Notes under the pieces: model-generated
Databases searched by the model: none
Told to the model about the DNA's origin: nothing
What the model saw: the letters and a program-made list of their open reading frames with translations, nothing else
Source of the DNA: a virus
Taxonomy: Duplodnaviria > Heunggongvirae > Uroviricota > Caudoviricetes
Length of the DNA stretch: 64,000 nucleotides
Reading direction: 5' to 3' (one strand)
IMG/VR virus record: IMGVR_UViG_2595698869_000001
Location: 107,214 to 171,213 of that record
Translations under genes and position numbers: made by a program
Shown: positions 6,541-63,470 of the stretch, piece by piece
How the letters are laid out: every line of letters begins with the position of its first letter
How positions within the stretch are numbered: position 1 is the stretch's first letter

Positions 6541-6615
6541 GGCAAACTCCGAAAGGCAGGCTTGAGTGAATGTGTTGCCGATCCTTCTAGCGAGGCGTTC
6601 TGGCTCTGTCAACAC
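6541..6615 (-). promoter_or_regulatory. Cassette promoter + leader for rIIA/rIIB
   Basis: GTGTTGACA-N16-CTAGAAG on minus strand (TGTCAACAC at ~6607-6615 on plus). Confidence 0.55.
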
Positions 6616-6638
6616 ACTCCAGCCTGCCGGGATGTCGT

Positions 6639-6680
6639 GAATCTTGACGTTCCGCGACGCCTGAGGCATGCTCGTATTCA
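6639..6680 (+). promoter_or_regulatory. Rightward promoter with GAATC abutting -35 (TTGACG)
   Basis: gtGAATCTTGACGttcc; diverges from rIIA promoter. Confidence 0.4.
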
Positions 6681-6775
6681 TGCGGAACATCACGGCTGAA
6701 GCGACGGGCAAGACCCGCACTTGCACGTCCGAGGATTATCCCTGGCCCCCGCGCGGGTCCGAGGGATGCGATTGC

Positions 6776-6919
6776 ATGGAAAAGTCCAGCAACCCCAAGC
6801 GCGACTTCATGCTGATCGCCGACCGCACCGGTGTAATCGTATGGTACGCGAGGATGACATGCCCGATTCACGGCCCGAAGATCAAGACGTCGGACGTCGC
6901 AACCGAATCCACGACCTGA
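6776..6919 (+). CDS. possible small ORF (47 aa)
   Basis: Moderate GC3, GAGGGA upstream; overlaps 6859 gene in another frame; uncertain. Confidence 0.25.
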   Translation: MEKSSNPKRDFMLIADRTGVIVWYARMTCPIHGPKIKTSDVATESTT

Positions 6920-7266
6920 TCGTCGGCGACCCTCGGGAGGACGCCCGCTACGCCCGCAAGCTCAGCAACCGCGACAAGACGATGTTCGTCTGCGGGGTCC
7001 TCAACCATCCCGCCTCGGCTTTCGATCTCGATCTCCCGTTCCCGATCGAGGACTGGATCGCCTCGGACGACAATTCCCTGGTCTGCGCCGGGCTCTACCT
7101 GACCGATCTGCGCCTCCAGTTCTACGAGGCCCTGGCGCCGGCCCAGGACGACGAGCAGGCCTTCGTCCGCCAGGGCGAGGCCGAGTTCTGGTATCACCGC
7201 TTCAACGTCATGATCGAGCGGCGCGCCCACGGCGTGCTGGTCACCGACGGGCGCGTCCTCCATTGA
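6859..7266 (+). CDS. hypothetical protein (start uncertain)
   Basis: Very high GC3 from ~6920 on; ATG 6859 has GAGGA SD but first 20 codons have low GC3; true start may lie downstream. Confidence 0.45.
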   Translation: MPDSRPEDQDVGRRNRIHDLIVGDPREDARYARKLSNRDKTMFVCGVLNHPASAFDLDLPFPIEDWIASDDNSLVCAGLYLTDLRLQFYEALAPAQDDEQAFVRQGEAEFWYHRFNVMIERRAHGVLVTDGRVLH

Positions 7267-7637
7267 GCAGCGATCTGCCCCTCTACGATGGCGCGCTGAC
7301 GGGCAAGCTCGTCGGCCGCTTCGTGCGCGCCGGGCAGGCCTTCGACGTCGTGCGTCCCGGCTTCGACGCCCAGGGGATCAAGCGCCAGACCTGGACCCAG
7401 ATCGTCCATGGCGGCGTTCCCGTCTTCGAGGTCAAGGTCCGCACCGATCTCGACAACGTGATCGACCGCTTCGACGAACTGTGGGAGCGCCATATCGGCG
7501 AGGACGAGGACCTGCTCGCCCGCGCCCTGGCCTCGGTCAAGAAGGAGCGGACCGCCAAGTTCCGGGATGGCAAGTCGGGGGTCACGCCGGCCCCGACCGT
7601 CCACGACGTCCGCATCCCCACCGCCTATAGCGGTTGA
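7263..7637 (+). CDS. hypothetical protein (TTG start overlapping upstream stop)
   Basis: Very high GC3 throughout; TTGA overlap with upstream gene. Confidence 0.5.
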   Translation: MSSDLPLYDGALTGKLVGRFVRAGQAFDVVRPGFDAQGIKRQTWTQIVHGGVPVFEVKVRTDLDNVIDRFDELWERHIGEDEDLLARALASVKKERTAKFRDGKSGVTPAPTVHDVRIPTAYSG

Positions 7638-7716
7638 CATTTTGTTGGCGTTCGAGGGTTGACAGCCCGGATTTCATGACTTAGATGCCTCCTCGACGAC
7701 AACGAAGGAGGTTCTC
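7634..7716 (+). promoter_or_regulatory. Tandem TTGACA boxes + CTTAGAT -10 + GACGACAACGAAGGAGG leader for recombinase gene
   Basis: ggTTGACAttttg...gggTTGACAgcccggatttcatgaCTTAGATgcctcctcGACGACAACGAAGGAGGttctcATG. Confidence 0.5.
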
Positions 7717-8343
7717 ATGCCCAAGCGGATCAAAGGCAAGCGCATCGCCCTGCACCGGGCCAAGGTGCTCGACGCCGACGAGTTCAACAACCTGATCGAA
7801 GGCGTGTCCCGCCGCGAGCACGGTCTGCGTGACCGCGTGCTCTTCAAGCTCTCCTTCTATTGCGGCCTGCGCGTCGCCGAGATCGCCGGCCTGGAGTGGC
7901 GCAAGCACCTGCTGGACGCCAGCGGCCGTCTGCGTCCCGCCATCCACGTCACCCACGACATCGGCAAGAACTCGGTCGAGCGCTTCATCCCGATCGAAGC
8001 CTCGCTGGCCGAGGACCTGCGCACCCTGCGCAAGACCTGCCGCGACAAACGCTTCGTCATCTACCCCCTGCGCGTGACCATGCGCGGCGGCCCGGAGAAG
8101 ACCGACGCCAACACCCTGGCGCAATACATGCGCCGGACGTTCCTGGAGTTCGGCCTGGACGGCGCCTCGTCGCACTCGGGCCGCCGCACCTTCATCACCG
8201 ATCTCGCGCGGAAAGCGAACCTCGTGGGTTGCTCGCTCCGGGACATCCAGGGCATGGTGGGTCACAAGCGGATCGAGACCACCGGCAGCTATATCGAGAC
8301 CAGCCGGCAGCAGGACCAACTTGTCGCCCTGGTCCTGCGATAG
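7717..8343 (+). CDS. Tyrosine recombinase, catalytic domain only (208 aa)
   Basis: Box [18 protein letters not shown] (H-x-x-R), [13 protein letters not shown] (catalytic Tyr); no N-terminal core-binding domain. Confidence 0.7.
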
Positions 8344-13209: not shown

Positions 13210-13321
13210 AATCTCCAGGCGCGGGAATGTCACCCCTGATGACACACCCAGCACGAGACGTAAAGTGTTGACAGACGACACTCGAAGCCGGTATTGAAAC
13301 TCCTGTACGGTAAGGGAAAAC
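13201..13321. promoter_or_regulatory. Divergent control region with inverted repeat TGTCA-N7-TGACA and cassette -35 GTGTTGACA
   Basis: aaTGTCAcccctgaTGACAcaccc...aaaGTGTTGACAgacgacactcg between divergent genes. Confidence 0.45.
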
Positions 13322-13921
13322 ATGATCGACGACGATTCAGACTGGCAGGAAGGCGAGCTTTCGCCGCCCCGCGCCCCGATCACCACCAAGGACCTGACGG
13401 CCGCCGCCCAGAGCGTCGCCGGCGGGCGCATGGCGGCGATGCGGGCGGCCGGAGAATCCCATCGACGCGATTTCCTGATCCTGCGCGGGCCGCTGGGCGT
13501 CGTCCGGCTCTCGTTCGCGCATGTTCCGGTCCTCCAGGCGCTTTGGCGTGTCTGGGCTCGCAAGCGGCTCCAGCGGATCGATGATCCCGGCGCCAATCTT
13601 GCAGAGATCGGAGCCGAGATGGGTTTGGAGGTCAGCGCGGTCCGCCCGGTGATCACCAGCCTGCACAAGAACCGACTGATCCGCACGCGCCGCAGCCACC
13701 ACGGCTGGCAGGGCGTGCGGGCGACCTACTACCCGTCGGAGATCGCCGTCCAGGCCCTGGGCTTGGCGGAGGTCCTCGGCCCTGGTCACGCCGTCCAGGT
13801 GGGGCGTAACGCCTCGGCCTGGGCGAGCCGCAGCCAGACCGAGCCCGGCAACCTGTTCCAACACGCCGCGCTGTTGCGGGGCGGGGCTCATGCCAGGGCC
13901 TACGATTCGGAGTATTCATGA
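13322..13921 (+). CDS. winged-helix (MarR-like) transcriptional regulator, putative
   Basis: ANLAEIGAEMGLEVSAVRPVITSLHKNRLIRTRR HTH-like segment; good GC3. Confidence 0.45.
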   Translation: MIDDDSDWQEGELSPPRAPITTKDLTAAAQSVAGGRMAAMRAAGESHRRDFLILRGPLGVVRLSFAHVPVLQALWRVWARKRLQRIDDPGANLAEIGAEMGLEVSAVRPVITSLHKNRLIRTRRSHHGWQGVRATYYPSEIAVQALGLAEVLGPGHAVQVGRNASAWASRSQTEPGNLFQHAALLRGGAHARAYDSEYS

Positions 13922-18040: not shown

Positions 18041-18644
18041 CTCGGAGATAGAGGGGATGGCGCGGGTGGCCGTCCTTGGACTTCCCGAGGCACTTGACCT
18101 CGACCCCCGTGATTTCCGCCTGCTGGACCGCGCCATAATCCTGATCCTTGAACTCTCCATGCACGCCCCAGGCGGCGATCACGTCGGCGCCGGCGGTCAT
18201 GGCATATTCGAACACGTGCTGGAGGACGCGGGCGTTCATCGGCCCGATCGGGTCCTCGGCCGCCTTCATCTCCGCCGGCGAGGGCGAGCGGAAGGCGAAG
18301 AGATTGGCGACGATGATCCCGCCATAGTCGTCCCGACGCGCAAAGCCCATGCAGCGGCGGATCGTCGGATCGTCCAGCCGCGCCGTCGCGGTCGACGGGT
18401 TCAGCATCAGGAAGATCAGCAGCGGCTTGCCGGGGTCCCAGACCCGCATGAGGAGGTAGCGGAAGGTCTCGCACCGCGACAGCAGGGCGGCCTTGATCAC
18501 GCCTTCCTCCATCACCGCGTCGCCGTAGACGTCGGTCAGGTCGGGATCGAACACGGCCTCCAGCGAGGTTCCGTCCAGGACCTGGAGCAGGCCTTTCCAG
18601 GTGGCTTCCGCCACCTCGGCGTCGATCTGGGGTGCTGTCGTCAT
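18006..18644 (-). CDS. DUF1643 family protein
   Basis: LIFLMLNPSTA hallmark; downstream of variant cassette promoter. Confidence 0.55.
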   Translation of the reverse strand: MTTAPQIDAEVAEATWKGLLQVLDGTSLEAVFDPDLTDVYGDAVMEEGVIKAALLSRCETFRYLLMRVWDPGKPLLIFLMLNPSTATARLDDPTIRRCMGFARRDDYGGIIVANLFAFRSPSPAEMKAAEDPIGPMNARVLQHVFEYAMTAGADVIAAWGVHGEFKDQDYGAVQQAEITGVEVKCLGKSKDGHPRHPLYLRGDQPVVPLRSA

Positions 18645-18683
18645 TCCTGACATTTGCCCTGAAACGCCAGGGCCTGTCAACGC
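18645..18683 (-). promoter_or_regulatory. Variant cassette promoter (GCGTTGACA)
   Basis: minus strand caagCGTTGACAggccctggcgtttcagggcaaATGtcaggaATGACGACAGCACC. Confidence 0.4.
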
Positions 18684-24409: not shown

Positions 24410-24837
24410 TATCGCTTACCCCTCATTCTGAAGCCGGGCCGGATGCGCCGGATCGGCTTGTTCTCGTCCAGGGAGCGACCCCCATAGCCGCTCAACTCGC
24501 TGAAACCGTTCATGCGCACCGCGAACCGGCGCGTCTTGACGGTCAACTGGTCGCGCTCGAAACCGCGCTCGACCAGCGTCAGGTCGATGACGTCGCCGAA
24601 CACCTCCCCGTGGAAGATGCGCCGCCGCGCCCAGGCGATCGCCGCCCCGAGGTGCGGAAATTCCCGGTGCCGCTCGGCGTCCCGGATCGAGACGCCGTCG
24701 GCATAGCTGGCGTCGACCCAGTCCAGTTTGACCTCGCGGCGCGGCGCGGTCACCTTCTTGAACTCGATCGGCGGCGACGGTTGGCCCAGGCCACCCGTCT
24801 CGATGTCAAAAACCGCGTAGGTGATTGTCTCCGTCAT
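24409..24837 (-). CDS. hypothetical protein
   Basis: First gene after cassette promoter at ~24870; weak FDIETGGL motif. Confidence 0.45.
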   Translation of the reverse strand: MTETITYAVFDIETGGLGQPSPPIEFKKVTAPRREVKLDWVDASYADGVSIRDAERHREFPHLGAAIAWARRRIFHGEVFGDVIDLTLVERGFERDQLTVKTRRFAVRMNGFSELSGYGGRSLDENKPIRRIRPGFRMRGKR

Positions 24838-24878
24838 GCCTCGCGACACTACGCTTTGGGTTCTTGTATTGTCAACAC
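24838..24878 (-). promoter_or_regulatory. Cassette promoter (short leader)
   Basis: GTGTTGACAatacaagaacccaaagCGTAGTGtcgcgaggcATG on minus. Confidence 0.45.
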
Positions 24879-26218: not shown

Positions 26219-26817
26219 GCGGTCTCCTGCTGGAGGTTAGCCGGCGCCGGGATGGCGTCGGAAAGGGCTTGCTCGACCAGGACCAGGATGTCCATGACGA
26301 GCTTGGGATTGAGGTCGGGCTCGGTGAGCGCGGCGGCCAGGGCGTTGATCCGGAACCACGTCGGGTCAGCGTGCGGGATCAGATTGAGATTGTGCAGGTG
26401 CAGCAGCGTCGAGCCGTGGGAGGCGGTCCGCTCCGAAAGCTCGCGCAGCACGCGGGCGCCGGCGAGTTGGTCGGCCAGGACCTTGATCACGCTGCCCGAG
26501 GGAGCCAGGAGCAGGCGCATCCAGTCGCCGTTCGGATCGTCGGCTTGGCGCAGGTCCGGATGGTCCAGCGTCTTGCCCCAGATCACCTCGTGCGCCTTGG
26601 CGGCCAGCGAGCGGCGGCGGCGGGCGAGGTCTTCGGCGTCCTTGGCGGCGCGCAGGCTGGAAAGCGTCGTGGCGATCAACACCGAGGGAAAGAGCGCGAC
26701 GACGAAGAACGCGGCGCGCTCAAGTGGCGAGGCGTGCGAAGCCACGATATTCATGGCCGTGCCGATCAGCACCGTCGGATAGATCAAGCCGCCGTGGCGC
26801 TGGATGAACGAGATCAT
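26215..26817 (-). CDS. membrane protein (2 predicted TM)
   Basis: First gene after cassette promoter 26873; hydrophobic N-terminal segments. Confidence 0.5.
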   Translation of the reverse strand: MISFIQRHGGLIYPTVLIGTAMNIVASHASPLERAAFFVVALFPSVLIATTLSSLRAAKDAEDLARRRRSLAAKAHEVIWGKTLDHPDLRQADDPNGDWMRLLLAPSGSVIKVLADQLAGARVLRELSERTASHGSTLLHLHNLNLIPHADPTWFRINALAAALTEPDLNPKLVMDILVLVEQALSDAIPAPANLQQETA

Positions 26818-26881
26818 GAAAAGGGCCTCCGGCGTTGTCGTCGAAGGCCCTTCTAGCGAGTCGGTGTCAGGCTGTCAACAC
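26818..26881 (-). promoter_or_regulatory. Cassette promoter + leader
   Basis: GTGTTGACAgcctgacaccgactcgCTAGAAGggccttcGACGACAACGccGGAGGcccttttcATG. Confidence 0.55.
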
Positions 26882-31222: not shown

Positions 31223-31288
31223 GGCGGGCTCCTTCTGTGGTGTCGTGATTTACGACTTTTGACCATGCTCCTCGGACGGTGTCAACAC
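31223..31288 (-). promoter_or_regulatory. Cassette promoter (variant leader GACACCACAGAAGGAG) for rtcB
   Basis: GTGTTGACAccgtccgaggagcatggTCAAAAGtcgtaaatcacGACACCACAGAAGGAGcccgccGTG. Confidence 0.5.
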
Positions 31289-33458: not shown

Positions 33459-33745
33459 CAGGCCGCGAGCCCGCGCTGCTTCAAGGCGACGATCTGCTCG
33501 ATCTCCTTGAGGATGTGGTCCGACAGGCGGTCGGTCCGTTCCTTGATGCCGGCGGGGACGCCGATCTTGCACTGACCGATCTCGTGCAGGCGGTCGGAGA
33601 CGGCCTTCAGGTCGATCAGGGTGTCGCTGATCAGCACCTCGGCGAGGCCGATGGCCTCGGTCTGGATGGCGGCGATCCGCTGGGCGGTGGTCTGCGCCGA
33701 TTGGCCCGCGACGAGGGCCAGGGCGGCGTTGTTCTTCTGGGTCAT
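33458..33745 (-). CDS. hypothetical protein (95 aa)
   Basis: First gene after cassette promoter 33798. Confidence 0.5.
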   Translation of the reverse strand: MTQKNNAALALVAGQSAQTTAQRIAAIQTEAIGLAEVLISDTLIDLKAVSDRLHEIGQCKIGVPAGIKERTDRLSDHILKEIEQIVALKQRGLAA

Positions 33746-38731: not shown

Positions 38732-39090
38732 TGGTCCGACACCTTCGCCAGTTGCTTTTCCAGTTCGGCGCGCAGTTCAGCGTCGCTCAGGCCCAGGCGC
38801 TCCTTCATGAACGCCACCGCCTCGGCGGTGGTCTCGAAGGAGCGGGTCTCGGCATCGGTGCTGTCGCGCAGGCCAAGGATTTCGATCACGCCCCAGAACG
38901 TCGCCCAGGCGGTGGCGATCAAGGCCGCCAGCGTGATGGCGAAGCCGAAGTCGAACTGGCGCGCGGCGCTCAGTTCCCCCACCTCGACCGCCGTCCAGGC
39001 CACCGCCACGAGGCTCACCGAGGTGAGGTGAAGCAGGGCGCTCGTGCGGGTGTGGGTCGGGCGGACGGTCAGGGTCATCTTGTCTTGCAT
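38728..39090 (-). CDS. membrane protein (120 aa)
   Basis: First gene after promoter 39145. Confidence 0.5.
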   Translation of the reverse strand: MQDKMTLTVRPTHTRTSALLHLTSVSLVAVAWTAVEVGELSAARQFDFGFAITLAALIATAWATFWGVIEILGLRDSTDAETRSFETTAEAVAFMKERLGLSDAELRAELEKQLAKVSDQ

Positions 39091-39153
39091 GAGGGTCTCC
39101 TCTGCGGTTGTCGTCGCCCGCCTCTTAGGACAAGGCCGCAGCCTTGTCAACAC
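39091..39153 (-). promoter_or_regulatory. Cassette promoter + leader
   Basis: GTGTTGACAaggctgcggccttgtcCTAAGAGgcgggcGACGACAACCGCAGAGGAGaccctcATG. Confidence 0.5.
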
Positions 39154-40869: not shown

Positions 40870-41039
40870 CGCAGTAGCTCTCCGTCGGCGATCCGGATGT
40901 CGCTCAGGGGATAGTCCTGGAAGAAGGCGCGCAGCCGCTGGCGTAGCATCCCCTCGACAGCCTCGGCGTTGTTCAAGGTCTCGAAGAGGTCCTCGAACAT
41001 CTGGCGCTCATTGGCGCGTAAGGGTCGGGTCTTCGGCAT
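40866..41039 (-). CDS. small hypothetical protein (57 aa)
   Basis: Start follows full cassette leader GACGACAACGAAGGAGacctcgATG. Confidence 0.4.
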   Translation of the reverse strand: MPKTRPLRANERQMFEDLFETLNNAEAVEGMLRQRLRAFFQDYPLSDIRIADGELLR

Positions 41040-41099
41040 CGAGGTCTCCTTCGTTGTCGTCATGCGGCTTCTAGGTCGACTTTGCCGGATTGTCAACAC
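41040..41099 (-). promoter_or_regulatory. Cassette promoter + leader
   Basis: GTGTTGACAatccggcaaagtcgacCTAGAAGccgcatGACGACAACGAAGGAG. Confidence 0.55.
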
Positions 41100-41917: not shown

Positions 41918-42935
41918 CGGCGACCTCCTCGACCTCTTCCTCGCTCGGGGCGATCGTCGAGCCCGAATATTCCTGGAGGTGGTCGACCGCCTTCTGGGCC
42001 AGCGACGCGGCGGTGAAGATGAAGCGCTTGTCGCCCTTCAGGACCTTCAGCCAGGAGGCGACATAGGAGGCGTGGTCTTCGCGGACTTCCGGGGTCAGGC
42101 CGAGGATGGCGCAGAGGAAGGCCGAGCCCAGTTCGGCGACCAGTTCCTCGGCGGCGTAGGCCTCGTCACCGAAGCGCTTGCCGAACTCGCGGTTCAGGCG
42201 GTCCTCGCGACCGGTCCAGTGGACGAACTCGTGGCCGAGGGTGGCGTAGTAGCTCTCCTCGTCGCGGAAGGCGTCGAACTGGGGCATCTGGATGAAGTCC
42301 AGGTGCGGCGAGAAGAAGGCCCGATGGCCGCCGTGGCGCACCTCGGCGCCCGTGGCGGCGAAGAACTTCTCGACCGCCGCGTTGCGCTCCAGGACCCGCT
42401 TGGCTTCCTCGGCGGGCGTCGCCGGGGCCGGGGCGGGCTTCTGGTAGAAGCGCTCGGGCAGACCGTCGATCTGCTCGACGTTGAACACCAGATAGGACTT
42501 CAGGAACGGGATCATCCGCTCGACGTCCTTGCCGTTCGAGTCCTTCTCGGTCTTCTTGAACTTGGAGGCGTAGACGATCAGTTCGGACTTCTCGCCCTTG
42601 CGGACCTGACCACCCAGGTCCCTGGCTTGGTTGTAGGTCATCCAGGTTGGGTTGGTGTAACCGCGCTCCTGCGCGGCGGCCCACAGGAGGACCACGTTGA
42701 TCCCGGTGTAGCGCTGGCCCGTCACGCGGCGCGGATAGATCGCCATGCCAGCCGAGGCGCCGCCGGGAGCCGACCACGGCTTCAACCAGGGACGCACGCC
42801 AGCGTCGAGCGCGGCGACGATCTTGTCGGTGATCTTCTGATAGAGGTCGACCTTCACGGTTTCGGTCGAGGCCTTGCCCGTCTCCTTGGTGGAGCGCTTG
42901 GTCGGCTTCTTCTTGGCGGCGGTGGTCTTGGTCAT
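41904..42935 (-). CDS. ardC: ArdC-like antirestriction protein (ssDNA-binding N-domain + HExxH metallopeptidase-like C-domain)
   Basis: LYQKITDKIVAALDAGVRPWLKPW N-terminal hallmark; GHEFVHWTGRE zinc motif; first gene after promoter 42986. Confidence 0.7.
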   Translation of the reverse strand: MTKTTAAKKKPTKRSTKETGKASTETVKVDLYQKITDKIVAALDAGVRPWLKPWSAPGGASAGMAIYPRRVTGQRYTGINVVLLWAAAQERGYTNPTWMTYNQARDLGGQVRKGEKSELIVYASKFKKTEKDSNGKDVERMIPFLKSYLVFNVEQIDGLPERFYQKPAPAPATPAEEAKRVLERNAAVEKFFAATGAEVRHGGHRAFFSPHLDFIQMPQFDAFRDEESYYATLGHEFVHWTGREDRLNREFGKRFGDEAYAAEELVAELGSAFLCAILGLTPEVREDHASYVASWLKVLKGDKRFIFTAASLAQKAVDHLQEYSGSTIAPSEEEVEEVADAAA

Positions 42936-42994
42936 CAGGGCCTCCTCGTTGTCGTCGAGGGGGTTCTAGCCGGCGACCGCGACCTTGTCAACAC
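42936..42994 (-). promoter_or_regulatory. Cassette promoter + leader
   Basis: GTGTTGACAaggtcgcggtcgccggCTAGAACcccctcGACGACAACGAGGAGGccctgATG. Confidence 0.55.
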
Positions 42995-44131: not shown

Positions 44132-44385
44132 GACTTGAGGCTCTGGCAGGCGAACGTGATCACGTCGCCGAGGGTGTTGAAATCCTCGGGGAACTGGACC
44201 GGCTCAGGGACGGCGAAGTCCTCCTCCAGGCACATCATCAACTCGATGATGTCCAGGCTGTCGAGGCCCAGATCATCTTCCAGCCGTAGCCCCTCGTCCA
44301 TATCGTCGAGGGTGTACGACCGGTCGGTGATCGCATGGGCGTAGTCGAAGGTCGCCGCCTTGATCTCGTCGCGCGTGAAGGTCAC
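44128..44385 (-). CDS. acpP: Acyl carrier protein
   Basis: DLGLDSLDIIELMMCLEEDF matches ACP phosphopantetheine-attachment motif (DSL); 85 aa acidic. Confidence 0.6.
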   Translation of the reverse strand: MTFTRDEIKAATFDYAHAITDRSYTLDDMDEGLRLEDDLGLDSLDIIELMMCLEEDFAVPEPVQFPEDFNTLGDVITFACQSLKS

Positions 44386-45116
44386 GGCTCTCCCCCTGGT
44401 GTCGTTTCGGCGCTTCTAGCCCTCCCAAGCAGAGCCGTCAACACATCAGCGCCACGCCAGACCCAGGATAGGCTCAGAACGAGGTCGCGGTCCTCATAGG
44501 CGGCGCTGCGCCCGGTGATCACCTTGATCGCCGAGAGCGGGCCAAACCGCCAGAAGACGACCGTGCGCGAGTCGTTGCGGCCGGGCAGGTGCTCCAGCAG
44601 CACGCGACGCTTGATCGCGAGGTGGCGCTGTTCCTTGTGGAGGACCAGGGCGATCTTGCATGTCGGATCGGACCCGAACCACCGGCGCCAGTAGCCCGGA
44701 TTGTCGATGTTCTCGTAGAGCCGGCCGATCCGTTTGCTGACCGGGCGCAGGCCCGGCTCGCGCCGGCGCACGCTGAGCGGCGGGAACGTGCAGGGCGGCC
44801 ACTCGGCGAGCAAGCTCTGGCGCAGCCGGCGAAATTCCCAGGCCGGCATGGCGTTGTCCTTGGTGTTGTTGCACGCCACGCAGGCCGCCGCCAGATTGCT
44901 CTCGTGGTTCGATCCGCCCTCGGCCTTGGCCTCCAGGTGCTCGATCGTCACTTCGTCGGGCTCCAGCTTGCCGCCACCCCGGCCGATCCGCCGGCGATAG
45001 GCCATCTGCCCCGTGCAATAGGTGCAGAGGCCGCCCGCCTCCAGGAAGAGGCGGTGGCGGCGGTTCGGCGCGGCGGGCGGTAGCGGGTCCTGGACCAGCA
45101 CCTCAGATGAGGACAT
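44382..45116 (-). CDS. HNH endonuclease; ORF reads through the downstream promoter
   Basis: CTYCTGQMAYRRRIG...HLEAKAEGGSNHESNLAAACVACNNTK; last ~30 codons have low GC3. Confidence 0.55.
   Translation of the reverse strand: MSSSEVLVQDPLPPAAPNRRHRLFLEAGGLCTYCTGQMAYRRRIGRGGGKLEPDEVTIEHLEAKAEGGSNHESNLAAACVACNNTKDNAMPAWEFRRLRQSLLAEWPPCTFPPLSVRRREPGLRPVSKRIGRLYENIDNPGYWRRWFGSDPTCKIALVLHKEQRHLAIKRRVLLEHLPGRNDSRTVVFWRFGPLSAIKVITGRSAAYEDRDLVLSLSWVWRGADVLTALLGRARSAETTPGGEP
44386..44444 (-). promoter_or_regulatory. Cassette promoter variant (GTGTTGACG)
   Basis: GTGTTGACGgctctgcttgggagggCTAGAAGcgccGAAACGACACCAGGGGGAGAGccGTG. Confidence 0.5.
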
Positions 45117-47016: not shown

Positions 47017-47600
47017 GCCTCGATCTCCTCGAACCGCCCATCCATGAATTCGGCCTCGCGCCGACCCCACATCTGGCCCTCGGCGTCGAGGTAGGTCAGC
47101 AGGGTCTCGTCATCGAGCACCGGGGTCTCGCACTGGATGCGGATCGTCCCGACCAGGGCGTATTCGCCGCCGCGCTTCCTGTGGCGGAAGCGCCGCATGC
47201 CGCGCGGAAGCTCCGCCAGGAAGGCCTTCAGGGCGTCCGCCACCTTGGCGACGCCGTGCGGGAAGTGCGAGCCCGGCCCGCGCACCCATTGATAGATCGT
47301 CGCCAGGGCGAAGCGCCCGGCGGCGATCTCGCCCGTGGGGTCCTTGCGGATCATGTCCGGCGCGTAGTCTTCGAGATAGTTCGTCCCGAGGATCGCCATG
47401 CAGCGGGCCTCCTCCACCGAGGTCGGCAGACGCAGGTGATCGCGATCCAGGCGGTCGGCCTCGGCGAGCGACTTGATCACCCCGACCAGGATCGCCGCCT
47501 TCTCGGCGTGCCACTGCCGTCCGCCCGGCTCTGGGGCGCGCTCGGCGTGGTAGAGGTGGTAGTCCAGTATCTCGTGGACGTCTTCGCTCTGTCGGGACAT
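47013..47600 (-). CDS. hypothetical protein (195 aa)
   Basis: First gene after promoter 47653. Confidence 0.5.
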   Translation of the reverse strand: MSRQSEDVHEILDYHLYHAERAPEPGGRQWHAEKAAILVGVIKSLAEADRLDRDHLRLPTSVEEARCMAILGTNYLEDYAPDMIRKDPTGEIAAGRFALATIYQWVRGPGSHFPHGVAKVADALKAFLAELPRGMRRFRHRKRGGEYALVGTIRIQCETPVLDDETLLTYLDAEGQMWGRREAEFMDGRFEEIEA

Positions 47601-47661
47601 AGGGTTCCTTCCGTTGTCGTCACCCGCGACACTAGATGGTCGGAGGTGTGACTGTCAACAC
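47601..47661 (-). promoter_or_regulatory. Cassette promoter + leader
   Basis: GTGTTGACAgtcacacctccgaccaTCTAGTGtcgcgggtGACGACAACGGAAGGAAccctATG. Confidence 0.5.
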
Positions 47662-49474: not shown

Positions 49475-49767
49475 CAGTCGACCTTCGGTTCGCGCTTGAA
49501 GCGGCCGTTCTCGTCATAGCGGTCCGGGTTGGCGCCGGGGGCGTGGAAGCCCGCCATCGAGCCGATCTCCATGGCCGCGCGCTGCGCCGGCGTGACGCCC
49601 ATGCGCTGGTTCATGGCGGTGACGGCGGCCTCGCCCTGGACCCCGTAGTCGGTCGCGTAGTAGCCGGTCTCATCCTTCTTCAGGATGACCGTCTCGCCCG
49701 TCTCGATGTTGATCGAGTAGCAGAGGTCGGGCAGGGCCGCGAGATTGATCTGGCGTTGGGTCAGCAT
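49474..49767 (-). CDS. hypothetical protein
   Basis: First gene after promoter 49820. Confidence 0.45.
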   Translation of the reverse strand: MLTQRQINLAALPDLCYSINIETGETVILKKDETGYYATDYGVQGEAAVTAMNQRMGVTPAQRAAMEIGSMAGFHAPGANPDRYDENGRFKREPKVD

Positions 49768-49828
49768 GGAGGCCTCCTTGTTGTCGTCGAGGATGGCTTC
49801 TAGCCGGCCCAGGTCACGTTGTCAACAC
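49768..49828 (-). promoter_or_regulatory. Cassette promoter + leader
   Basis: GTGTTGACAacgtgacctgggccggCTAGAAGccatcctcGACGACAACAAGGAGGcctccATG. Confidence 0.55.
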
Positions 49829-53809: not shown

Positions 53810-54090
53810 CAGGCGGCGCCCTGGGCGATTTCGTAGGTGATCTTCGAGACGCCGATGTCGACCACGAACCGGTCGGGCGAGCCGTCGAACACGTAGTTGG
53901 CCTGACACCCAATCGGCATCATCTTGCCGTTGTCCATCCAGATCGCGTCCGGAGTGGCCTCGACCACGCCGCGCACCTGGGCCTGAGCCGGAGAAGGTTG
54001 CATCTCCACGCCGCCCACGGTGATCGCCACGGCCGCGAGACGCGCGCCCGGCTGGTTCAACTTGGCGATCAGGTCCTGGATCGAGTTCAC
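53809..54090 (-). CDS. hypothetical protein (GTG start after cassette leader)
   Basis: GACACAACGACAGAAGGAGGccgcGTG. Confidence 0.4.
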   Translation of the reverse strand: MNSIQDLIAKLNQPGARLAAVAITVGGVEMQPSPAQAQVRGVVEATPDAIWMDNGKMMPIGCQANYVFDGSPDRFVVDIGVSKITYEIAQGAA

Positions 54091-54153
54091 GCGGCCTCCT
54101 TCTGTCGTTGTGTCGACATAAGCTCTAGCCGTGGTTTTCCGGCCTGTCAACAC
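54091..54153 (-). promoter_or_regulatory. Cassette promoter + leader
   Basis: GTGTTGACAggccggaaaaccacggCTAGAGCttatgtcGACACAACGACAGAAGGAGG. Confidence 0.5.
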
Positions 54154-57790: not shown

Positions 57791-57885
57791 GTGTTGACAA
57801 GCACCAATGTCGCTGGCTTTCGAGTGTTGACAAGTCCGGTGCTCGTCTATAGGGGAGACCGGGACGACAACGAAAGGAGCCTGCC
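57791..57885 (+). promoter_or_regulatory. Tandem cassette promoters (two GTGTTGACA boxes 33 bp apart) + leader for rightward operon
   Basis: ttcgaGTGTTGACAagcacc...ttcgaGTGTTGACAagtccggtgctcgtCTATAGGggagaccggGACGACAACGAAAGGAGcctgccATG. Confidence 0.55.
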
Positions 57886-58194
57886 ATGCGCTATGTGCTC
57901 GACTATGCCGACGACCGGGACAACCCGGTCTATACCGATTTCCAGGCCGGCGACCGCAAGGCGGCCATCGCCAAGGCCAAGCGCCTGCTCGCCAAGGCGA
58001 TCAAGACCGTCGATTTCTCGCTCCACGGGGCCTACATCTTCGTCGATCCGACGGGCGTCGCCCGCGACGTCGACGACATGATCCCGTTCGGCATGCTGAG
58101 CACGATGGCCTACGCCAGCATCGTCACCCCGTCGATGATCTCGTTCGACGACCGCGACGCCAAGGCGGCGATCGCCGCGAGGCTCGCCCAATGA
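57886..58194 (+). CDS. hypothetical protein
   Basis: First gene after tandem promoters. Confidence 0.5.
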   Translation: MRYVLDYADDRDNPVYTDFQAGDRKAAIAKAKRLLAKAIKTVDFSLHGAYIFVDPTGVARDVDDMIPFGMLSTMAYASIVTPSMISFDDRDAKAAIAARLAQ

Positions 58195-60086: not shown

Positions 60087-60341
60087 ATGCTGACCAAGGA
60101 CGAGATCACCTTCGCGGGCCTGATCAAGGCCATGGAGGACGCCCGACGCACCGCCAAGGCGGCGGGCGATCTCGTCAGCACGGCCGAGATCGACCGCTGG
60201 TTCAAGGAACACGCGCCGATCATCCGGGAGGTCCGCGACAAGGCCGAGGCCGACGAATTCGACGCTGGCGCGAGAGTGTTGACAGCCTCTGAGGAAGGGG
60301 CTAAAGACACCCTCGACGACAGCGAAAGGAGCCTGCCTTGA
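60087..60341 (+). CDS. hypothetical small protein; 3' end encodes the next promoter and leader
   Basis: Codons span GTGTTGACA...GACGACAGCGAAAGGAG. Confidence 0.4.
   Translation: MLTKDEITFAGLIKAMEDARRTAKAAGDLVSTAEIDRWFKEHAPIIREVRDKAEADEFDAGARVLTASEEGAKDTLDDSERSLP
60276..60337 (+). promoter_or_regulatory. Cassette promoter + leader inside coding sequence
   Basis: GTGTTGACAgcctctgaggaaggggCTAAAGAcaccctcGACGACAGCGAAAGGAGcctgccTTG. Confidence 0.5.
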
Positions 60342-61357: not shown

Positions 61358-61542
61358 CTATCACCGCCCACGCAGAATCCGTCCTGGCGCTCCAGGCGCA
61401 GGCCGCCGACACCCTCAATCGGGTGATCGGAGAGCGCAACGCCGCCACGGGCGCGAAGAAAACGCGCCTGCGCCGCCTGACCCTGATCCTTGAAGACGTG
61501 ATGGGCGCCTGCAACGACGCCGTGGAGGAGATGCGCCGGTGA
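61354..61542 (+). CDS. hypothetical small protein
   Basis: TTGA overlap. Confidence 0.4.
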   Translation: MTITAHAESVLALQAQAADTLNRVIGERNAATGAKKTRLRRLTLILEDVMGACNDAVEEMRR

Positions 61543-61934
61543 TCTTCAGTTCCAAAACCCAGCCCCACTGCCGCTGCTGCGCCAAGCCGATCAAGAAGCA
61601 CACCCGCCGCCACTATTTCGGCTCCAGGGAAGCCAAGGACAACGGCTGGTCGCTCGACCGGATCGAGACCCCGATGTCGGAGGACGAACTGCGTCGGCTG
61701 GTGAACGGTCATATCGTCTCGTTCGCCTGGAGCCACGACGTCACCTACGACGCCAACTACAAGGCCGTGCGGAAGAAGACCCACATCGCCTGGGCCAACG
61801 TCTGGGACGGCGAGACCTACGAGGACGGTTATTTCTGCACCCTGCGATGCGCCGCCGCGTTCGGGAGCATGGTCGCCGAGCACTATCCCGATATCCACAC
61901 CCAGGCCTACGCAGACTTCAAGGGCAAGCGATGA
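61539..61934 (+). CDS. hypothetical Cys-rich protein
   Basis: GTGA overlap; CRCC...C motifs. Confidence 0.45.
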   Translation: MIFSSKTQPHCRCCAKPIKKHTRRHYFGSREAKDNGWSLDRIETPMSEDELRRLVNGHIVSFAWSHDVTYDANYKAVRKKTHIAWANVWDGETYEDGYFCTLRCAAAFGSMVAEHYPDIHTQAYADFKGKR

Positions 61935-62653
61935 ACGACGAGATCAAGAGAACCCACGAGGCCTACGGGACCATCGGCTATAGCCACACTCAGGGCGACA
62001 CCGATCTGGTCGGCGTCGACTACGCCCAGGGCCACTATGTGACCCTGACGATCAAGACGGCCGTCGCCTATGAGGGCGAGACCCATGACCGCTTCCACGG
62101 CGACAAGTACATCTGCAAGGTGGCGATGAGCGAGGTCCAGTGGGCCGCCTTCATCGCCAATCCGAACCGGGGCGACGGCGTGCCTTGCACCTTGCAGTTC
62201 TATCGCGATCCGCTGACCGGCGAGACCAAGCACCCGAAGTATCATCGCGAGCAAATGACCCGCGTCGAGCGCACCCGCGAGGCCGTCACCGCCCGCGCCA
62301 AGGCCCTGTCGACCAAGGTCAAGGAGGCCCAGGCCGAGCTTCAGCGGCTGATGGACGGCGGCCCGATCAAGAAGGGCGATCTGAAGACGCTCAAGGACCT
62401 GCTCTACTTCGCCAACCAGGACATGGAGTCGAACCTCGGCTACTTCGTCGAGCGGGTGGAGGAGACCATCGACAAGGCGGTGGTCGACGCCAAGGCCCAG
62501 GTCGACGCCCACGTCGACTTCGTGGTTCGCGAACTGGGGGTGCGGGCTCTGGGCGCGCGGCTCCAGGAGGCCATCGACGCGGGGCATGATCCTGGCGCCG
62601 TGGGGCAGGCCCTGATCGGGCTCGTGGCGCCGCCGGAGGCAGACCCGACGTGA
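61931..62653 (+). CDS. hypothetical protein (240 aa)
   Basis: ATGA overlap. Confidence 0.5.
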   Translation: MNDEIKRTHEAYGTIGYSHTQGDTDLVGVDYAQGHYVTLTIKTAVAYEGETHDRFHGDKYICKVAMSEVQWAAFIANPNRGDGVPCTLQFYRDPLTGETKHPKYHREQMTRVERTREAVTARAKALSTKVKEAQAELQRLMDGGPIKKGDLKTLKDLLYFANQDMESNLGYFVERVEETIDKAVVDAKAQVDAHVDFVVRELGVRALGARLQEAIDAGHDPGAVGQALIGLVAPPEADPT

Positions 62654-62895
62654 GCCGCCGGTTCCTCAACCGCTGGGCCGAGGCGGTCGACGGCTCGCCC
62701 CAGTCCAAGCCCTTCCGGACCAAGGGCCTGTCGTTCGCCCATGCCCGCAGGACGGCGCGGGAGACCCAAGGGGTCGTCGCCGTCGAACACCAAGAACCCG
62801 TCAGCGACGCCTCGCCCAACTGGGCGGTGATCGAGCGCTGGGAATTCTATCCCGACGGCCGTGAGCGCCGCACCCTCAAGCTGGAGACCGTCTGA
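62650..62895 (+). CDS. hypothetical small protein
   Basis: GTGA overlap. Confidence 0.4.
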   Translation: MSRRFLNRWAEAVDGSPQSKPFRTKGLSFAHARRTARETQGVVAVEHQEPVSDASPNWAVIERWEFYPDGRERRTLKLETV

Positions 62896-62896
62896 C

Positions 62897-63391
62897 ATGA
62901 CCCGCAGCACCGCCGACATCATCGCCCGCATCAAGGCCCTGGAGGAAGACCCCAGCGACTTCTTCGGCTTCCAGACCAATGATCTGGTCTGCTACCTGCC
63001 GTTCGAGGACGCCAAGCCCTGGCTGAATGAAAACGCCACGCCCGAGGTCTGGACGCCCAACGTCAAAACCCCCGAGGCGATCAAGCAGGTCATCCTCGAC
63101 TACATGGAGTTCGCCTGGGACAAGGCCAACAACCGGCGCGGCCTGTCCGCCGGCCGCTCGCTCGATCACATGAAGGCGTGGCTCTGGATGCTGGAGGAGG
63201 ACGCGGCCTGGGTCGCGGCCCTGAAGCTCTCCGACTATACCCACTACGGCAAGCCGCAGCTTCGCGCGATCTGCAAGCGCTTCGGCTGGGACTGGACGCA
63301 GTGGGACGACGGGCGGTGGTCCAGCCGCGAGTTCGGCGATGATCACGCGCCCGAGGACGTCGAGGAAGTCGGGATCATCGAGCCCGCCTGA
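62897..63391 (+). CDS. hypothetical protein (164 aa)
   Basis: ATG one nt after upstream TGA. Confidence 0.45.
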   Translation: MTRSTADIIARIKALEEDPSDFFGFQTNDLVCYLPFEDAKPWLNENATPEVWTPNVKTPEAIKQVILDYMEFAWDKANNRRGLSAGRSLDHMKAWLWMLEEDAAWVAALKLSDYTHYGKPQLRAICKRFGWDWTQWDDGRWSSREFGDDHAPEDVEEVGIIEPA

Positions 63392-63409
63392 GTCTTTCCT
63401 GGCGCGAAA

Positions 63410-63470
63410 GTGTTGACAGCCTGAAGGGACTCCTCTACACCCACGCTCGACGACAACGAGAGGAGTTCCC
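63410..63470 (+). promoter_or_regulatory. Cassette promoter + leader
   Basis: GTGTTGACAgcctgaagggactcctCTACACCcacgctcGACGACAACGAGAGGAGttcccATG. Confidence 0.5.

Follow-up and report, generated by a model that had tools for sequence, protein, structure and literature searches.

GcvB, an Hfq-dependent small RNA, reportedly uses a G/U-rich seed to pair with C/A-rich elements 5' of the Shine-Dalgarno sequence in many mRNAs, and in enterobacteria such elements are said to act as translational enhancers. Among phages, P1/P7 c4, lambda OOP, and P22 sar are antisense RNAs of temperate-phage immunity or lysogeny circuits, each directed at one operon. Virulent phages such as T4, T5, and T7 (A1 to A3) carry families of near-consensus early promoters for the host RNA polymerase. 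Start-associated sequences, a repeated asymmetric motif, are reported from mycobacteriophage Cluster K; to our knowledge, published descriptions do not tie them to a sigma-70 promoter at constant spacing, and we know of no report of an RNA complementary to them. In T4, the RegB endoribonuclease and the RegA repressor are proteins that recognize GGAG or A/U-rich sites (PMC3014915). Phage small RNAs were reviewed in 2025 (PMC12197685); a term search of its text turned up neither Caulobacter nor a shared leader.

The 64,000-nucleotide stretch analyzed here (the window) is bases 107214-171213 of Caulobacter phage CcrKarma (Karma). A first-pass annotation had described a promoter plus 5'-UTR module recurring across it about 19 times. 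We found the recurring module and every -35 box that had been listed. Twenty GTGTTGACA-type -35 boxes lie ahead of annotated starts in the window, so that "about 19" holds as a count of promoters and fails as a count of complete modules. The 10-nt block GACGACAACG (≤2 mismatches) is present at 13 of the 20, degenerate at 3, and absent from 4. Together with a matching antisense RNA gene elsewhere in the genome, these roughly 20 predicted early promoters suggest that a single RNA switch governs all of the early genes. The individual sites are as follows.

6538..6615, minus strand: promoter of rIIA (gp140), GTGTTGACA-N16-CTAGAAG, with a long leader and without the GACGACAACG block
7656..7719, plus strand: full cassette of gp145 (tyrosine recombinase), with GGGTTGACA, TTAGATG, CCTCCTC-GACGACAACG-AAGGAGG, and ATG
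13265..13324, plus strand: family promoter of gp150, without the block
18642..18683, minus strand: leaderless variant of gp156, a GCGTTGACA promoter with the start codon at the predicted transcription start
24835..24878, minus strand: leaderless-type promoter of gp166, without the block
26815..26881, minus strand: full cassette of gp170
31220..31288, minus strand: cassette of RtcB (gp180) with a degenerate block (CACGACACCACAGAAGGAG)
33743..33806, minus strand: full cassette of gp185
35789..35852, minus strand: cassette of gp188 with a variant block (CACGACAGCG)
39088..39153, minus strand: full cassette of gp195 (GACGACAACC-GCAGAGGAG)
41037..41099, minus strand: full cassette of gp199
42933..42994, minus strand: full cassette of gp203 (ArdC-like antirestriction protein)
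44383..44444, minus strand: cassette of gp208 with a degenerate block (AACGACACCAGG)
47598..47661, minus strand: full cassette of gp216
49765..49828, minus strand: full cassette of gp220 (GACGACAACA)
54088..54153, minus strand: cassette of gp230 with a rearranged block (TCGACACAACGACAGAAGGAGG), heading a gene run that contains tgrL (gp228, 52453-52830)
57791..57832, plus strand: tandem pair of -35 boxes (57791 and 57824) in a divergent switch region
57824..57888, plus strand: full cassette of gp236
60276..60340, plus strand: cassette of gp245 (TTG start) with the block GACGACAGCG
63410..63473, plus strand: full cassette of gp251

The block-bearing promoters have their -35 boxes at 18683, 26881, 33806, 35852, 39153, 41099, 42994, 47661, and 49828 on the minus strand and at 7656, 57824, 60276, and 63410 on the plus strand. 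Degenerate blocks belong to the boxes at 31288, 44444, and 54153, and the block-free boxes are those at 6615 (rIIA), 13265, 24878, and 57791 (the upstream box of the tandem pair). The copy near 7659 had been placed on the minus strand and actually lies on the plus strand, while the promoters at 18683 and 24878, previously counted among the module copies, are of the leaderless type. At gp156 the start codon (18644) overlaps the block (AUGACGACAGC / AUGACGACAGCA), an arrangement that recurs in the relatives Rogue and Bajun. The gp199 cassette implies that this gene is read from the ATG at 41039 rather than from the annotated start at 41156, and the 57791 box is, by its sequence, a second promoter whose predicted transcript would span the entire 57824 cassette. 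In the gp170 cassette, GGGCCTTC-GACGACAACG-CCGGAGGCCC-TTTT also makes up a hairpin like that of a terminator, its loop holding the block and its 3' arm the Shine-Dalgarno sequence; a rho-independent terminator is annotated in the record at 26823-26850.

The cassette is confirmed as real and non-random. With ≤1 mismatch, GTGTTGACA had 24 matches in the window against 6.1 expected, a number reached in 0 of 100 shuffles, and GACGACAACGAAGGAG with ≤2 mismatches had 4 matches against 0.07 expected. Every intergenic copy of the 10-nt core GACGACAACG (≤1 mismatch) sits 3' of a TTGACA box and just 5' of a start codon. When sites were chosen by exact GTGTTGACA across Karma, a count independent of selection on the block, 13 of 22 carried the block. 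The family extends to the right of the window (Karma 174484, 176000, 183710, 188923, 191530, 194001, and 195394). A cassette scan of 185,579 bacterial species genomes returned 12 matches, about the number estimated for chance, with none in Caulobacter or Brevundimonas, and we therefore regard the cassette as phage specific.

Cassette anatomy, spacing, and conservation can be read directly from the DNA. In 13 of 18 copies, 17 nt separate TTGACA from the TA of the -10 element. The -10 hexamer is followed by the block after 6 to 9 nt, and these gaps agree with the module as first described. From the T of TTGACA to the block start, the distance is 35 to 37 nt (standard deviation [SD], 0.70), and from the block start to the start codon it is 19 to 25 nt (SD, 1.6); the block is thus held in tighter register with the promoter than with the start codon. 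Host RpoD motifs lie 34 to 37 nt 5' of the start site (Zhou 2015, PMC4287350). Because the two distances coincide, we infer that the block forms the first ~10 nt of a 19- to 25-nt leader, which bears out its earlier placement at the predicted transcript 5' end. The -35 element, 17-nt spacer, and CTAGAAG likewise fit reported Caulobacter RpoD promoters, and the module is a promoter of the sigma-70 type with a very short leader behind it. An E. coli-type promoter scan gave no matches among the cassettes because their -10 element has no T at the sixth position.

Information content was ~0 bits in the promoter spacers, while the -35, the -10, and the block were conserved (Karma, n = 20; Rogue, n = 23), with the figure for the block inflated because copies were picked by ≤2 mismatches to it. 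Block conservation exceeds the needs of a Shine-Dalgarno sequence, as had been proposed. The block was absent upstream of start codons that have no promoter, and some promoters lack it, so it is not a general feature of ribosome-binding sites. Since spacers are unrelated between copies and the block is kept in CcrRogue (Rogue), it is under selection rather than recently copied.

Between the tRNA cluster and gp085, at Karma 53068-53200 and thus beyond the window, lies an unannotated unit with a promoter of the cassette type. Its predicted ~95-nt RNA, from Karma 53104-53200 (about 52955-53050 in phiCbK, JX100813), consists of a 5' stem-loop, an unpaired CUUCUG-CGUUGUCGUC-AG, and an intrinsic terminator. 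The unit thus holds, between promoter and terminator, an exact reverse complement of the block; the unpaired CUUCUG-CGUUGUCGUC is complementary to the block and to most of the Shine-Dalgarno sequence, with a one-base bulge or mismatch between them. Predicted folds (-58.7 and -61.6 kcal/mol; z-scores, -5.5 and -6.3) leave the anti-block unpaired, in a linker between two conserved hairpins. The sequence CGTTGTCGTCAG is invariant in Karma, Magneto, Ccr10, BL57, BL10, and Rogue, while around it the promoter spacer changes, frame-breaking indels occur, and the apical hairpin varies (GGACC/GGUCC, GGGCC/GGCCC, and GGGGCC/GGCCCC). The first-pass suggestion of an RNA-level recognition element thereby gains support and a sharper form: the candidate partner of the block is a phage-encoded antisense small RNA complementary to it, not a protein regulator or a processing site.

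Rogue/BL10/BL57, Bajun, Colossus, Kikimora, and Domovoi each have a unit of the same layout at the matching place on the map, and in the last four an anti-Shine-Dalgarno element adjoins a (G/A)UCGUC core in each. In Karma, 16 of 29 leaders have GACGACAAC and the RNA carries GUUGUCGUC; in Colossus, 7 of 15 leaders have UGACGAUCA and the RNA carries CCUCC-UGAUCGUCA. Per RNA-sized window, a leader/RNA match of this kind has a background frequency of 0.004 for Karma and 0.011 for Colossus. When four leader sets were crossed with four seeds, the cognate seed gave the best mean duplex energy in all rows, and 0 of 200 shuffled seeds matched the observed result. The covariation is clean only for Karma/Rogue versus Colossus; Bajun leaders are split about evenly between GACGACG and GACGACA, Kikimora has one canonical cassette, and the cognate seed leads by only 0.1 kcal/mol in Domovoi. 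RNAalifold counted only one pair with both sides changed, and a strict top-k-mer test failed for Rogue and Bajun because the block is usually preceded directly by a C that the RNA does not match. A covariance model built from close relatives mostly picked terminators, ranking the Bajun RNA first and the Colossus RNA seventh. In CcrSC (Bertelyvirus), the leader differs (TCAAC) and the corresponding map position lacks an RNA unit. A whole-genome RNAduplex scan with a 25-nt seed did not single out the cassettes; many coding sites have similar energies in this genome of 66% G+C, so specificity would need accessibility plus a contiguous 9- to 10-nt match.

We favor, at a probability of roughly 0.6, the reading that these are early promoters of host sigma73 whose messages have a 5'-terminal leader in common, the target of a phage anti-leader small RNA. 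The cassettes would be strong promoters read by the host sigma73 (RpoD) polymerase through an upstream TGGC, the extended -35 GTGTTGACA, a 17-nt spacer, and a -10 of the CTAGAAG type, with transcription predicted to start at the G of GACGACAACG or within 1 to 2 bases of it. Early messages would then open with a common C/A-rich leader of ~10 nt, followed almost directly by AGGAG and the start codon. This leader may serve as the address for the trans-acting small RNA from Karma 53068-53200, whose pairing would cover the 5' end and ribosome-binding site of ~20 to 25 early messages simultaneously, most likely resulting in coordinated translational repression and/or decay. The role of the RNA is thus probably post-transcriptional shut-off of the early regulon; its architecture, its complementarity, and the Karma/Rogue-Colossus covariation are there in the genomes, and from them we infer its expression, its pairing in the cell, and the sign of its effect. 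Against this reading, one RNA gene facing ~25 strong promoters raises a question of stoichiometry, and a DNA-binding factor with co-evolving sites would also be expected to produce site covariation.

An early regulon had been proposed and is plausible: the 54153 cassette lies upstream of Karma gp228, identified by an exact primer match as the orthologue of tgrL, which in phiCbK was found experimentally to be early and highly expressed, peaking at 15 min and then declining (PMC10688885). The description of the driven genes as mostly anti-defense and takeover functions was not supported, as most are annotated as hypothetical; those with names include an ArdC-like antirestriction protein, RtcB, a tyrosine recombinase, an XRE regulator, and a putative acyl carrier protein.

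The block could instead act as DNA, either as an initially transcribed or discriminator-proximal element affecting open complex or promoter escape or as a +1 to +10 operator through which a phage or host DNA-binding protein shuts early promoters off; the copy in the small RNA gene would then be a further binding site in opposite orientation, and sites would follow the protein's specificity. The block is indeed locked to the promoter (the SD of 0.70 nt) and never found without one, the core GACGA is retained in all lineages, and several HTH proteins as well as a GcrA-like sigma-70 cofactor homologue are among the phage's gene products. Leaderless variants in three phages keep GACGAC after the start codon, which points to a feature tied to the start site. 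We nonetheless consider this reading unlikely: the block is non-palindromic, no candidate binding protein is linked to it, and neither the anti-Shine-Dalgarno element beside the inverted copy in six of six lineage types (CUUCU, CCUCU, CUCCUUUC, CCUCC, CCUCCUUA, and CCUCC) nor the location of that copy in an unpaired linker between two conserved hairpins is explained. We give still less credence to the block as a mere C/A-rich unstructured translational enhancer or standby site, with the complementarity incidental or meant for other targets, such as host messages. It is A/C-rich, lacks U, and lies directly 5' of a strong AGGAG in a 66% G+C genome, and the enterobacterial enhancers are C/A-rich elements in that position; yet operon-internal genes have a Shine-Dalgarno sequence and never the block, and an enhancer needs neither an exact 10-mer nor a lineage-specific 9-mer matching the phage's own RNA. 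An enhancer is also compatible with the small RNA reading, since GcvB targets just such elements.

Equally doubtful is that the block is the loop of an insulator hairpin, in which a C-rich sequence (CCTCCTCG), placed after the -10 and before the block, pairs with the Shine-Dalgarno region (CGAGGAGG), so that upstream read-through is terminated or translationally masked while transcripts starting within the hairpin stay open. Arms of 8 bp at Karma 183710 and 188923 and, in the window, at 7656 and at 26823-26850 (the annotated terminator, with its U tract) fit this, as do matched insertions in Colossus copies (CCTCCATG...CATGGAGG). Many full cassettes lack the arms, however (33806, 41099, 47661, and 57824), and a hairpin can form without a conserved loop; insulation would explain some copies and flanks, not the block itself. 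It is very improbable that the similarity merely records the recent duplication or gene conversion of a promoter module whose leader is unselected. An identical spacer, ACACTCTCGCGCCAACATAGAA, in three Karma copies (174484, 188923, and 191530) indicates that some duplication has happened, but the 17-nt spacers and flanks of the remaining copies are unrelated while the block is kept, and the block persists among different neighboring bases in the corresponding copies of Rogue, which shares 77 to 81% nucleotide identity with Karma across the compared regions. Spacer divergence already contradicts this account.

The proposed anti-leader RNA resembles P1/P7 c4, OOP, and sar in that a phage RNA would pair with phage messages and occlude the ribosome-binding site, and differs in having ~20 to 25 dispersed targets in a virulent phage. 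Like RegB and RegA, it would inactivate many early messages post-transcriptionally by way of a short motif in their translation initiation regions, and like them it would come from an early promoter and sharpen the early-to-middle switch (PMC3014915). The proposed Karma effector, however, is an antisense RNA that would take its specificity from a leader block outside the Shine-Dalgarno sequence, and no homology is implied. Like the Cluster K sequences, the block is a short asymmetric conserved motif, including the Shine-Dalgarno sequence, repeated just 5' of many start codons in one phage genome; it is set apart by sequence and host. GcvB offers the likeness of one RNA that has a rho-independent terminator and a G/U-rich seed, conserved and unpaired, together with many targets that carry a common C/A-rich element at or just 5' of the ribosome-binding site, and predicted translational repression. 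In Karma, RNA and targets alike come from a virulent phage, the target element would form the extreme 5' end of the message and is joined to a promoter type of its own, and the seed adds an anti-Shine-Dalgarno element. As in T4, T5, and T7, many near-consensus promoters for host RNA polymerase with extended conserved flanks would drive the early genes, whereas in Karma the conservation runs on through the first 10 predicted transcribed bases and varies by lineage with the partner RNA.

The window is identical to bases 107214-171213, plus strand, of CcrKarma (NC_019410.1 / JX100811; hereafter Karma), a virulent phiCbK-like siphophage with a 222-kb genome of 66% G+C. It contains rIIA/rIIB and a long minus-strand run of small, mainly hypothetical genes, and a diverging plus-strand gene run begins at about 57.8 kb. 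A first-pass annotation had described a promoter and leader cassette repeated in front of many of these genes; we recovered the cassette, and every coordinate listed for it was present, although the copy at 7659, which had been assigned to the minus strand, is on the plus strand.

The -35 sequence GTGTTGACA, with at most 1 mismatch, occurs 24 times in the window against 6.1 expected, a count reached by 0 of 100 shuffles. For the full 16-mer GACGACAACGAAGGAG, 4 occurrences with at most 2 mismatches compare with 0.07 expected. All intergenic copies of the 10-nt core (at most 1 mismatch) are located 3' of a TTGACA box, directly before a start codon, and the other near-matches in the window are dispersed within coding sequence. 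Twenty -35 boxes precede annotated starts; TTGAC(A/G) is found in all of them, and 16 match GTGTTGACA exactly. Downstream of 13 of the 20 we found, with at most 2 mismatches, a conserved C/A-rich leader sequence of about 10 nt (the block; GACGACAACG in Karma and in the related phage Rogue). An upstream TGGC, 13 nt before TTGACA, is a weaker element that is also conserved. The remaining sites, and the members of the family beyond the window, are as follows.

Family promoters with variant leaders, and copies right of the window
Window 31288, 44444, 54153: -35 boxes followed by a degenerate block (3 of 20 sites)
Window 6615 (before rIIA), 13265, 24878 and the upstream box of the tandem pair at 57791: no block (4 of 20 sites)
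Window 18642-18683, minus strand: leaderless-type promoter of gp156 (DUF1643), start codon at the predicted transcription start
Window 24835-24878, minus strand: leaderless-type promoter of gp166, start codon at the predicted transcription start
Karma 174484, 176000, 183710, 188923, 191530, 194001, 195394: further copies, so that the family reaches about Karma 195.4 kb

The start codon of gp156, at 18644, overlaps the block (AUGACGACAGC), and the codons after the AUG spell it (AUGACGACA); this overlap is also present in Rogue and in the Brevundimonas phage Bajun. At window 57791-57832 (plus strand), where transcription diverges, the -35 box and the upstream TGGC are duplicated in tandem, 33 nt apart, with the GcrA-like gene gp234 directly to the left; Rogue shares this tandem arrangement, at positions 166219 and 166253 of its genome (within the fetched stretch L013). 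The family promoter at Karma 191530-191623 (about 20317-20410 of stretch L006) has a perfect block with no Shine-Dalgarno sequence after it, and about 57 nt are untranslated before gp296. For gp199 (window 40866-41156, minus strand), the annotated start at 41156 would span the -35 and -10 of the cassette at 41099, which puts a Shine-Dalgarno sequence and ATG at 41039; the start codon is thus probably misannotated, and a shorter protein of about 57 amino acids is implied. Elsewhere in the window (21723-24409, minus strand), genes for nicotinamide phosphoribosyltransferase and an NMN adenylyltransferase-like cytidyltransferase (NAD salvage) are both also kept in Rogue, Bajun, and the phage Kikimora. 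They might be relevant to the 5' ends of phage RNA through NAD capping, but we saw no link between them and the cassette.

The cassettes have the anatomy expected of sigma-70-family promoters (Caulobacter sigma73/RpoD), with a -35 near TTGACA, a spacer of 16-18 nt, and a -10. Of the 18 Karma copies that could be measured, 13 have 17 nt between TTGACA and the TA of the -10, and 4 have 18 nt. The -10 consensus is cTAgAAG, and the block starts 6-9 nt past the -10 hexamer. Counted from the T of TTGACA, the first G of the block comes after 35-37 nt (sd 0.70), and the start codon is 19-25 nt from the block (sd 1.6). A scan for E. coli-type promoters returned 0 matches, only because the cassette -10 (TAGAAG) lacks a T at the sixth position, and this result is no argument against a Caulobacter promoter. 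The Caulobacter-type -10 was reportedly defined by Malakooti and Ely in 1995 as GCTANAWC, which TAGAAG fits. In a global 5'-RACE study of Caulobacter, 93% of RpoD motifs preceded the start site by 34-37 nt (PMC4287350). Since the distance from TTGACA to the block fits this interval, the block is predicted to form the first 10 or so nucleotides of the message, with transcription starting at its first base and an entire leader of about 20-25 nt. We saw no block upstream of a start codon without a promoter, while promoters without a block do exist, and the block is therefore not a general feature of ribosome-binding sites.

Two other readings of the promoter region were rejected: a sigma-54 element at the upstream TGGC, because there is no GC at -12, and a CcrM/GcrA methylation site as a general feature, because GANTC is found in few spacers only. 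Karma gp228, downstream of the cassette at 54153, is tgrL by exact primer match. In phiCbK, tgrL is highly expressed, peaks at 15 min, and then declines (PMC10688885). The leader before gp230, upstream of tgrL (window 54108-54153, minus strand), has TGTCGACAC, which nearly repeats its own -35 (GTGTTGACA) in inverted orientation.

Conservation of the block could simply reflect recent duplication of the module, and three copies do have one common spacer: the Karma promoters at 174484, 188923, and 191530 all have ACACTCTCGCGCCAACATAGAA, which points to recent duplication among family members. As a general explanation, however, duplication is contradicted by spacers that are unrelated between copies. 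In alignments anchored at the -35 or at the block, the information in the spacer columns is about 0 bits in both Karma (n = 20) and Rogue (n = 23), and the -35, -10, and block are strongly conserved in both. The information content of the block is inflated, because copies were chosen by at most 2 mismatches to it; the count of blocks after exact GTGTTGACA sites in Karma, 13 of 22, is free of that choice. Rogue belongs to another genus and is 77-81% identical to Karma at the nucleotide level where regions were compared. It carries the same block in more than 20 cassettes, whose spacers and block-adjacent bases differ from those of Karma. The block is under selection rather than recently copied. 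When the genomes of 185,579 bacterial and archaeal species were searched for GTGTTGACA-N26-29-GACGACAACG, there were 12 matches, by estimate about the number due to chance, and 0 in Caulobacter or Brevundimonas, which argues that the module is a phage feature and not a borrowed host leader.

Listing family promoters across the whole Karma genome revealed one in the tRNA region with no annotated gene behind it (Karma 53068-53200, plus strand; L004:3068-3200). The predicted transcript from 53068 includes an exact reverse complement of the block, GCGTTGTCGTCAGG (the anti-block), and the unit ends at a terminator annotated in the record (Karma 53160-53197). The RNA of about 95 nt is predicted to fold into a 5' stem-loop domain, an unpaired stretch (CUUCUG-CGUUGUCGUC-AG), and a strong terminator hairpin followed by a U-rich tail, at a fold energy of -58.7 kcal/mol (z-score of -5.5 to -6.1). 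Directly 5' of the anti-block is CUUCU (CCUCU in Rogue and BL10), which pairs with AGGAG across one bulged or mismatched base, so that the unpaired stretch is complementary to the leader plus the Shine-Dalgarno sequence. A minus-strand cassette was rejected as the source of the anti-block, because no TTGACA precedes it on the minus strand.

The unit is kept in all 26 phiCbK-like and Poindextervirus records, none of which contains a gene annotation for it. Rfam 15 had no family match in the window and, around the small-RNA locus, only tRNAs, with E values up to 1. Aligning the Karma, Magneto, Ccr10, BL57, BL10, and Rogue units shows an invariant CGTTGTCGTCAG and a scrambled promoter spacer. The apical hairpin looks compensatory by eye (GGACC/GGUCC, GGGCC/GGCCC, GGGGCC/GGCCCC); RNAalifold reported 1 pair changed on both sides. 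The only mechanical ORF is broken by 1-nt and 4-nt indels between relatives, so there is no conserved reading frame. The locus is thus an intergenic unit of its own, with a promoter, a rho-independent terminator, and no conserved ORF.

Using the neighboring genes gp085 and PhoH as map markers, we found units of the same layout at the equivalent map position in four more phages (coordinates are those of the fetched genome stretches).

Same-layout RNA units and the cassette leaders of the same phage
Bajun, L015 ~2230-2392: unpaired CUCCUUUC-AUC-CGUCGUCAG; leaders with a GACGAC core, then G or A about equally, and an AAAGGAG-type Shine-Dalgarno sequence
Colossus, L136 ~9430-9584: unpaired CCUCC-UGAUCGUCA; leaders (C/U)UGACGAUCA(A/C)
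Kikimora, L141 ~1330-1470: unpaired CCUCCUUA-UC-UAUCGUCGG; one canonical cassette in the 40 kb sampled, with leader UCGACGAUACG
Domovoi, L155 ~915-1060: CCUCC-GUCGUCA; leaders loosely (U)GACGAC(A)

The three-part layout, with a 5' stem-loop and a 3' terminator hairpin, was predicted for four of four folded RNAs (z-scores of -5.5, -6.3, -1.8, and -3.9). In these models the (G/A)UCGUC core is mostly unpaired in Karma, Rogue, and Bajun and only partly so in the Colossus minimum free energy fold; a conserved structure thus presents a conserved unpaired seed. A covariance model built from close relatives ranked the Bajun RNA as the top match (25 bits) and the Colossus RNA at 16 bits, among ordinary terminators; with an effective sequence number of 0.87 and a terminator-dominated signal, it was unusable as a test of distant homology. 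Scanning IMG/VR for the 15-mer CTGCGTTGTCGTCAG gave more than 119 matches, mostly apparent chance hits on unrelated contigs, with Rogue and BL10 the only recognizable relatives, and a search there for gp085 relatives again found just the Rogue and BL10 genomes.

In CcrSC, we found no RNA unit at the equivalent map position. Its leaders also differ, having TCAAC, an inverted copy of the -35 box. At most early promoters of this phage (stretch L138), the design is CTGTTGACA ... TGTCAACAG, with the inverted -35 copy in the leader, and the sequence suggests a palindromic operator across the promoter in the CcrSC lineage.

Two additional promoter-like elements were observed in these genomes. The element AATCTTGAC(T/A), distinct from the cassette, is found before the gene or genes just upstream of PhoH in all six lineage types examined (L004:3240-3260, L015:2430-2450, L136:9630-9650, L137:2890-2910, L141:1515-1535, and L155:1105-1125); the genes behind it are gp085 in Karma, its homologue in Bajun, and unnamed ORFs in the other four, and it may drive genes of a different temporal class. 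Colossus (L135, 206510-246545) and Domovoi (L156, 92202-132275) use a further type of early promoter with a long conserved extended -10, GTTTCTTTACAAG in Colossus and (A/G)TCATTCCTTTACA in Domovoi, and these promoters also lead into a GACGA-type leader.

Leader and seed change together between lineages. In Karma and Rogue the leader GACGACAACG can pair with the seed CGUUGUCGUC, and in Colossus UGACGAUCA can pair with UGAUCGUCA, the Colossus RNA bearing the exact complement of the block specific to that phage. When the most frequent leader 9-mers were picked without reference to the RNA, the complement of the top Karma 9-mer (GACGACAAC, 16 of 29 leaders) was found in the Karma RNA, and that of the top Colossus 9-mer (TGACGATCA, 7 of 15 leaders) in the Colossus RNA; the background per RNA-sized window is 0.004 and 0.011, respectively. 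This strict k-mer test fails for Rogue and Bajun because the base before the block is usually C, which is unmatched by the RNA. In a 4-by-4 matrix of leader sets against seeds, the cognate pair had the best mean duplex energy in every row. Mean energies were -24 to -26 kcal/mol, compared with -12 to -14 for shuffled seeds, and 0 of 200 shuffled seeds equaled the observed value in each of the four phages. Contiguous matches of at least 8 nt are present in 55-83% of Karma and Rogue leaders. Complementarity to translation initiation regions is therefore above chance, with softer covariation support from Bajun, Kikimora (n = 1), and Domovoi. A whole-genome RNAduplex scan with a 25-nt seed placed 7 cassettes in the top 20 among many coding sites at -28 to -34 kcal/mol; it was not discriminating as a target test in this G+C-rich genome and was superseded by the leader-set and shuffled-seed comparisons.

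A subset of cassettes has a C-rich stretch between the -10 and the block with complementarity to the Shine-Dalgarno region (as in CCTCCTCG...CGAGGAGG), and Colossus copies have matched insertions (CCTCCATG...CATGGAGG). Two are annotated as terminators.

Leader hairpins annotated as terminators
Window 26823-26850, minus strand: GGGCCTTC...GGAGGCCC-TTTT
Karma 188951-188978 (L006:17738-17765): hairpin with U tract

Both have the G+C-rich stem-loop and U tract of a rho-independent terminator (most other copies have no U tract) and are in fact cassette leader hairpins. Terminator and promoter overlap at both, because the block is the loop and the Shine-Dalgarno sequence is in the 3' arm. Given this complementarity, read-through transcripts from upstream would fold the block into the hairpin loop, and transcripts initiating at the block would be made without the 5' arm.

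We propose that host RpoD polymerase fires the near-consensus cassette promoters early, so that a shared C/A-rich leader would open every early message. The small RNA, made from the same promoter type, would then pair with the messages of the whole early class at their 5' ends and ribosome-binding sites and block ribosome entry, and the paired messages would probably be exposed to decay. Repression rather than activation is our inference from the anti-Shine-Dalgarno element. We give this full mechanism of early promoters, shared leader, and anti-leader small RNA, as read from sequence, a probability of roughly 0.6. The first-pass interpretation is upheld in part, and its suggestion of an RNA-level recognition element in the leader is supported and sharpened to a candidate leader and antisense-RNA pair.

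Alternatively, the block may act at the DNA level, as an element or operator located at +1 to +10. That would account for how tightly block and promoter are registered and for the retention of GACGAC in leaderless variants, and it could mimic the covariation, but it leaves unexplained both the adjacent anti-Shine-Dalgarno element and the seed-like placement of the complement in the RNA. A pure translational enhancer is compatible with pairing by the small RNA, and the two can coexist. We consider it about an even bet that large virulent Caulobacter and Brevundimonas phages (Dolichocephalovirinae) use a two-part RNA code for their early regulon, in which one small RNA, co-evolving with the leader across genera, reads leader plus Shine-Dalgarno sequence and switches the class off or sets its threshold posttranscriptionally.

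The cassette alone is a phage early-promoter family, a familiar kind; the co-evolving pair of leader and antisense RNA, as predicted here, would be new within sRNA regulation. By term search, the phiCbK-like phage genome paper does not describe promoters (the word occurs once, in another context) and a 2025 review of phage small RNAs does not mention Caulobacter or a shared leader; the sections of the phiCbK RNA-seq paper that we consulted describe neither promoters nor the small RNA proposed here. Within the incomplete literature coverage of our searches, we found no prior description of the motif strings or of a phiCbK small RNA and no earlier report in which a virulent phage directs a single antisense RNA at the shared leader of its own regulon.

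Phages of the phiCbK type are standard tools in Caulobacter biology. If the proposal is true, they have a defined early promoter and leader consensus, of use for start-codon reannotation and expression tools, and a regulatory RNA, so far without annotation, that is kept in six lineage types or more. The proposal would also offer a simple mechanism for the fall in early gene expression after 15 min seen by RNA-seq. The design would be new in phage temporal control: the opening ten bases of the messages would define a regulon, and a single antisense RNA would read them. The joint recoding of leader and seed would be attractive for engineered orthogonal control.

The G/U-rich seeds of GcvB-type sRNAs target C/A-rich elements upstream of Shine-Dalgarno sequences, and the proposed Karma RNA would act alike. 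In phage T4, RegB and RegA act on the initiation regions of many early messages and inactivate them (PMC3014915). Many early messages would likewise be hit at their initiation regions in Karma, but there the effector would be an RNA, an RNA-based counterpart to RegB/RegA.
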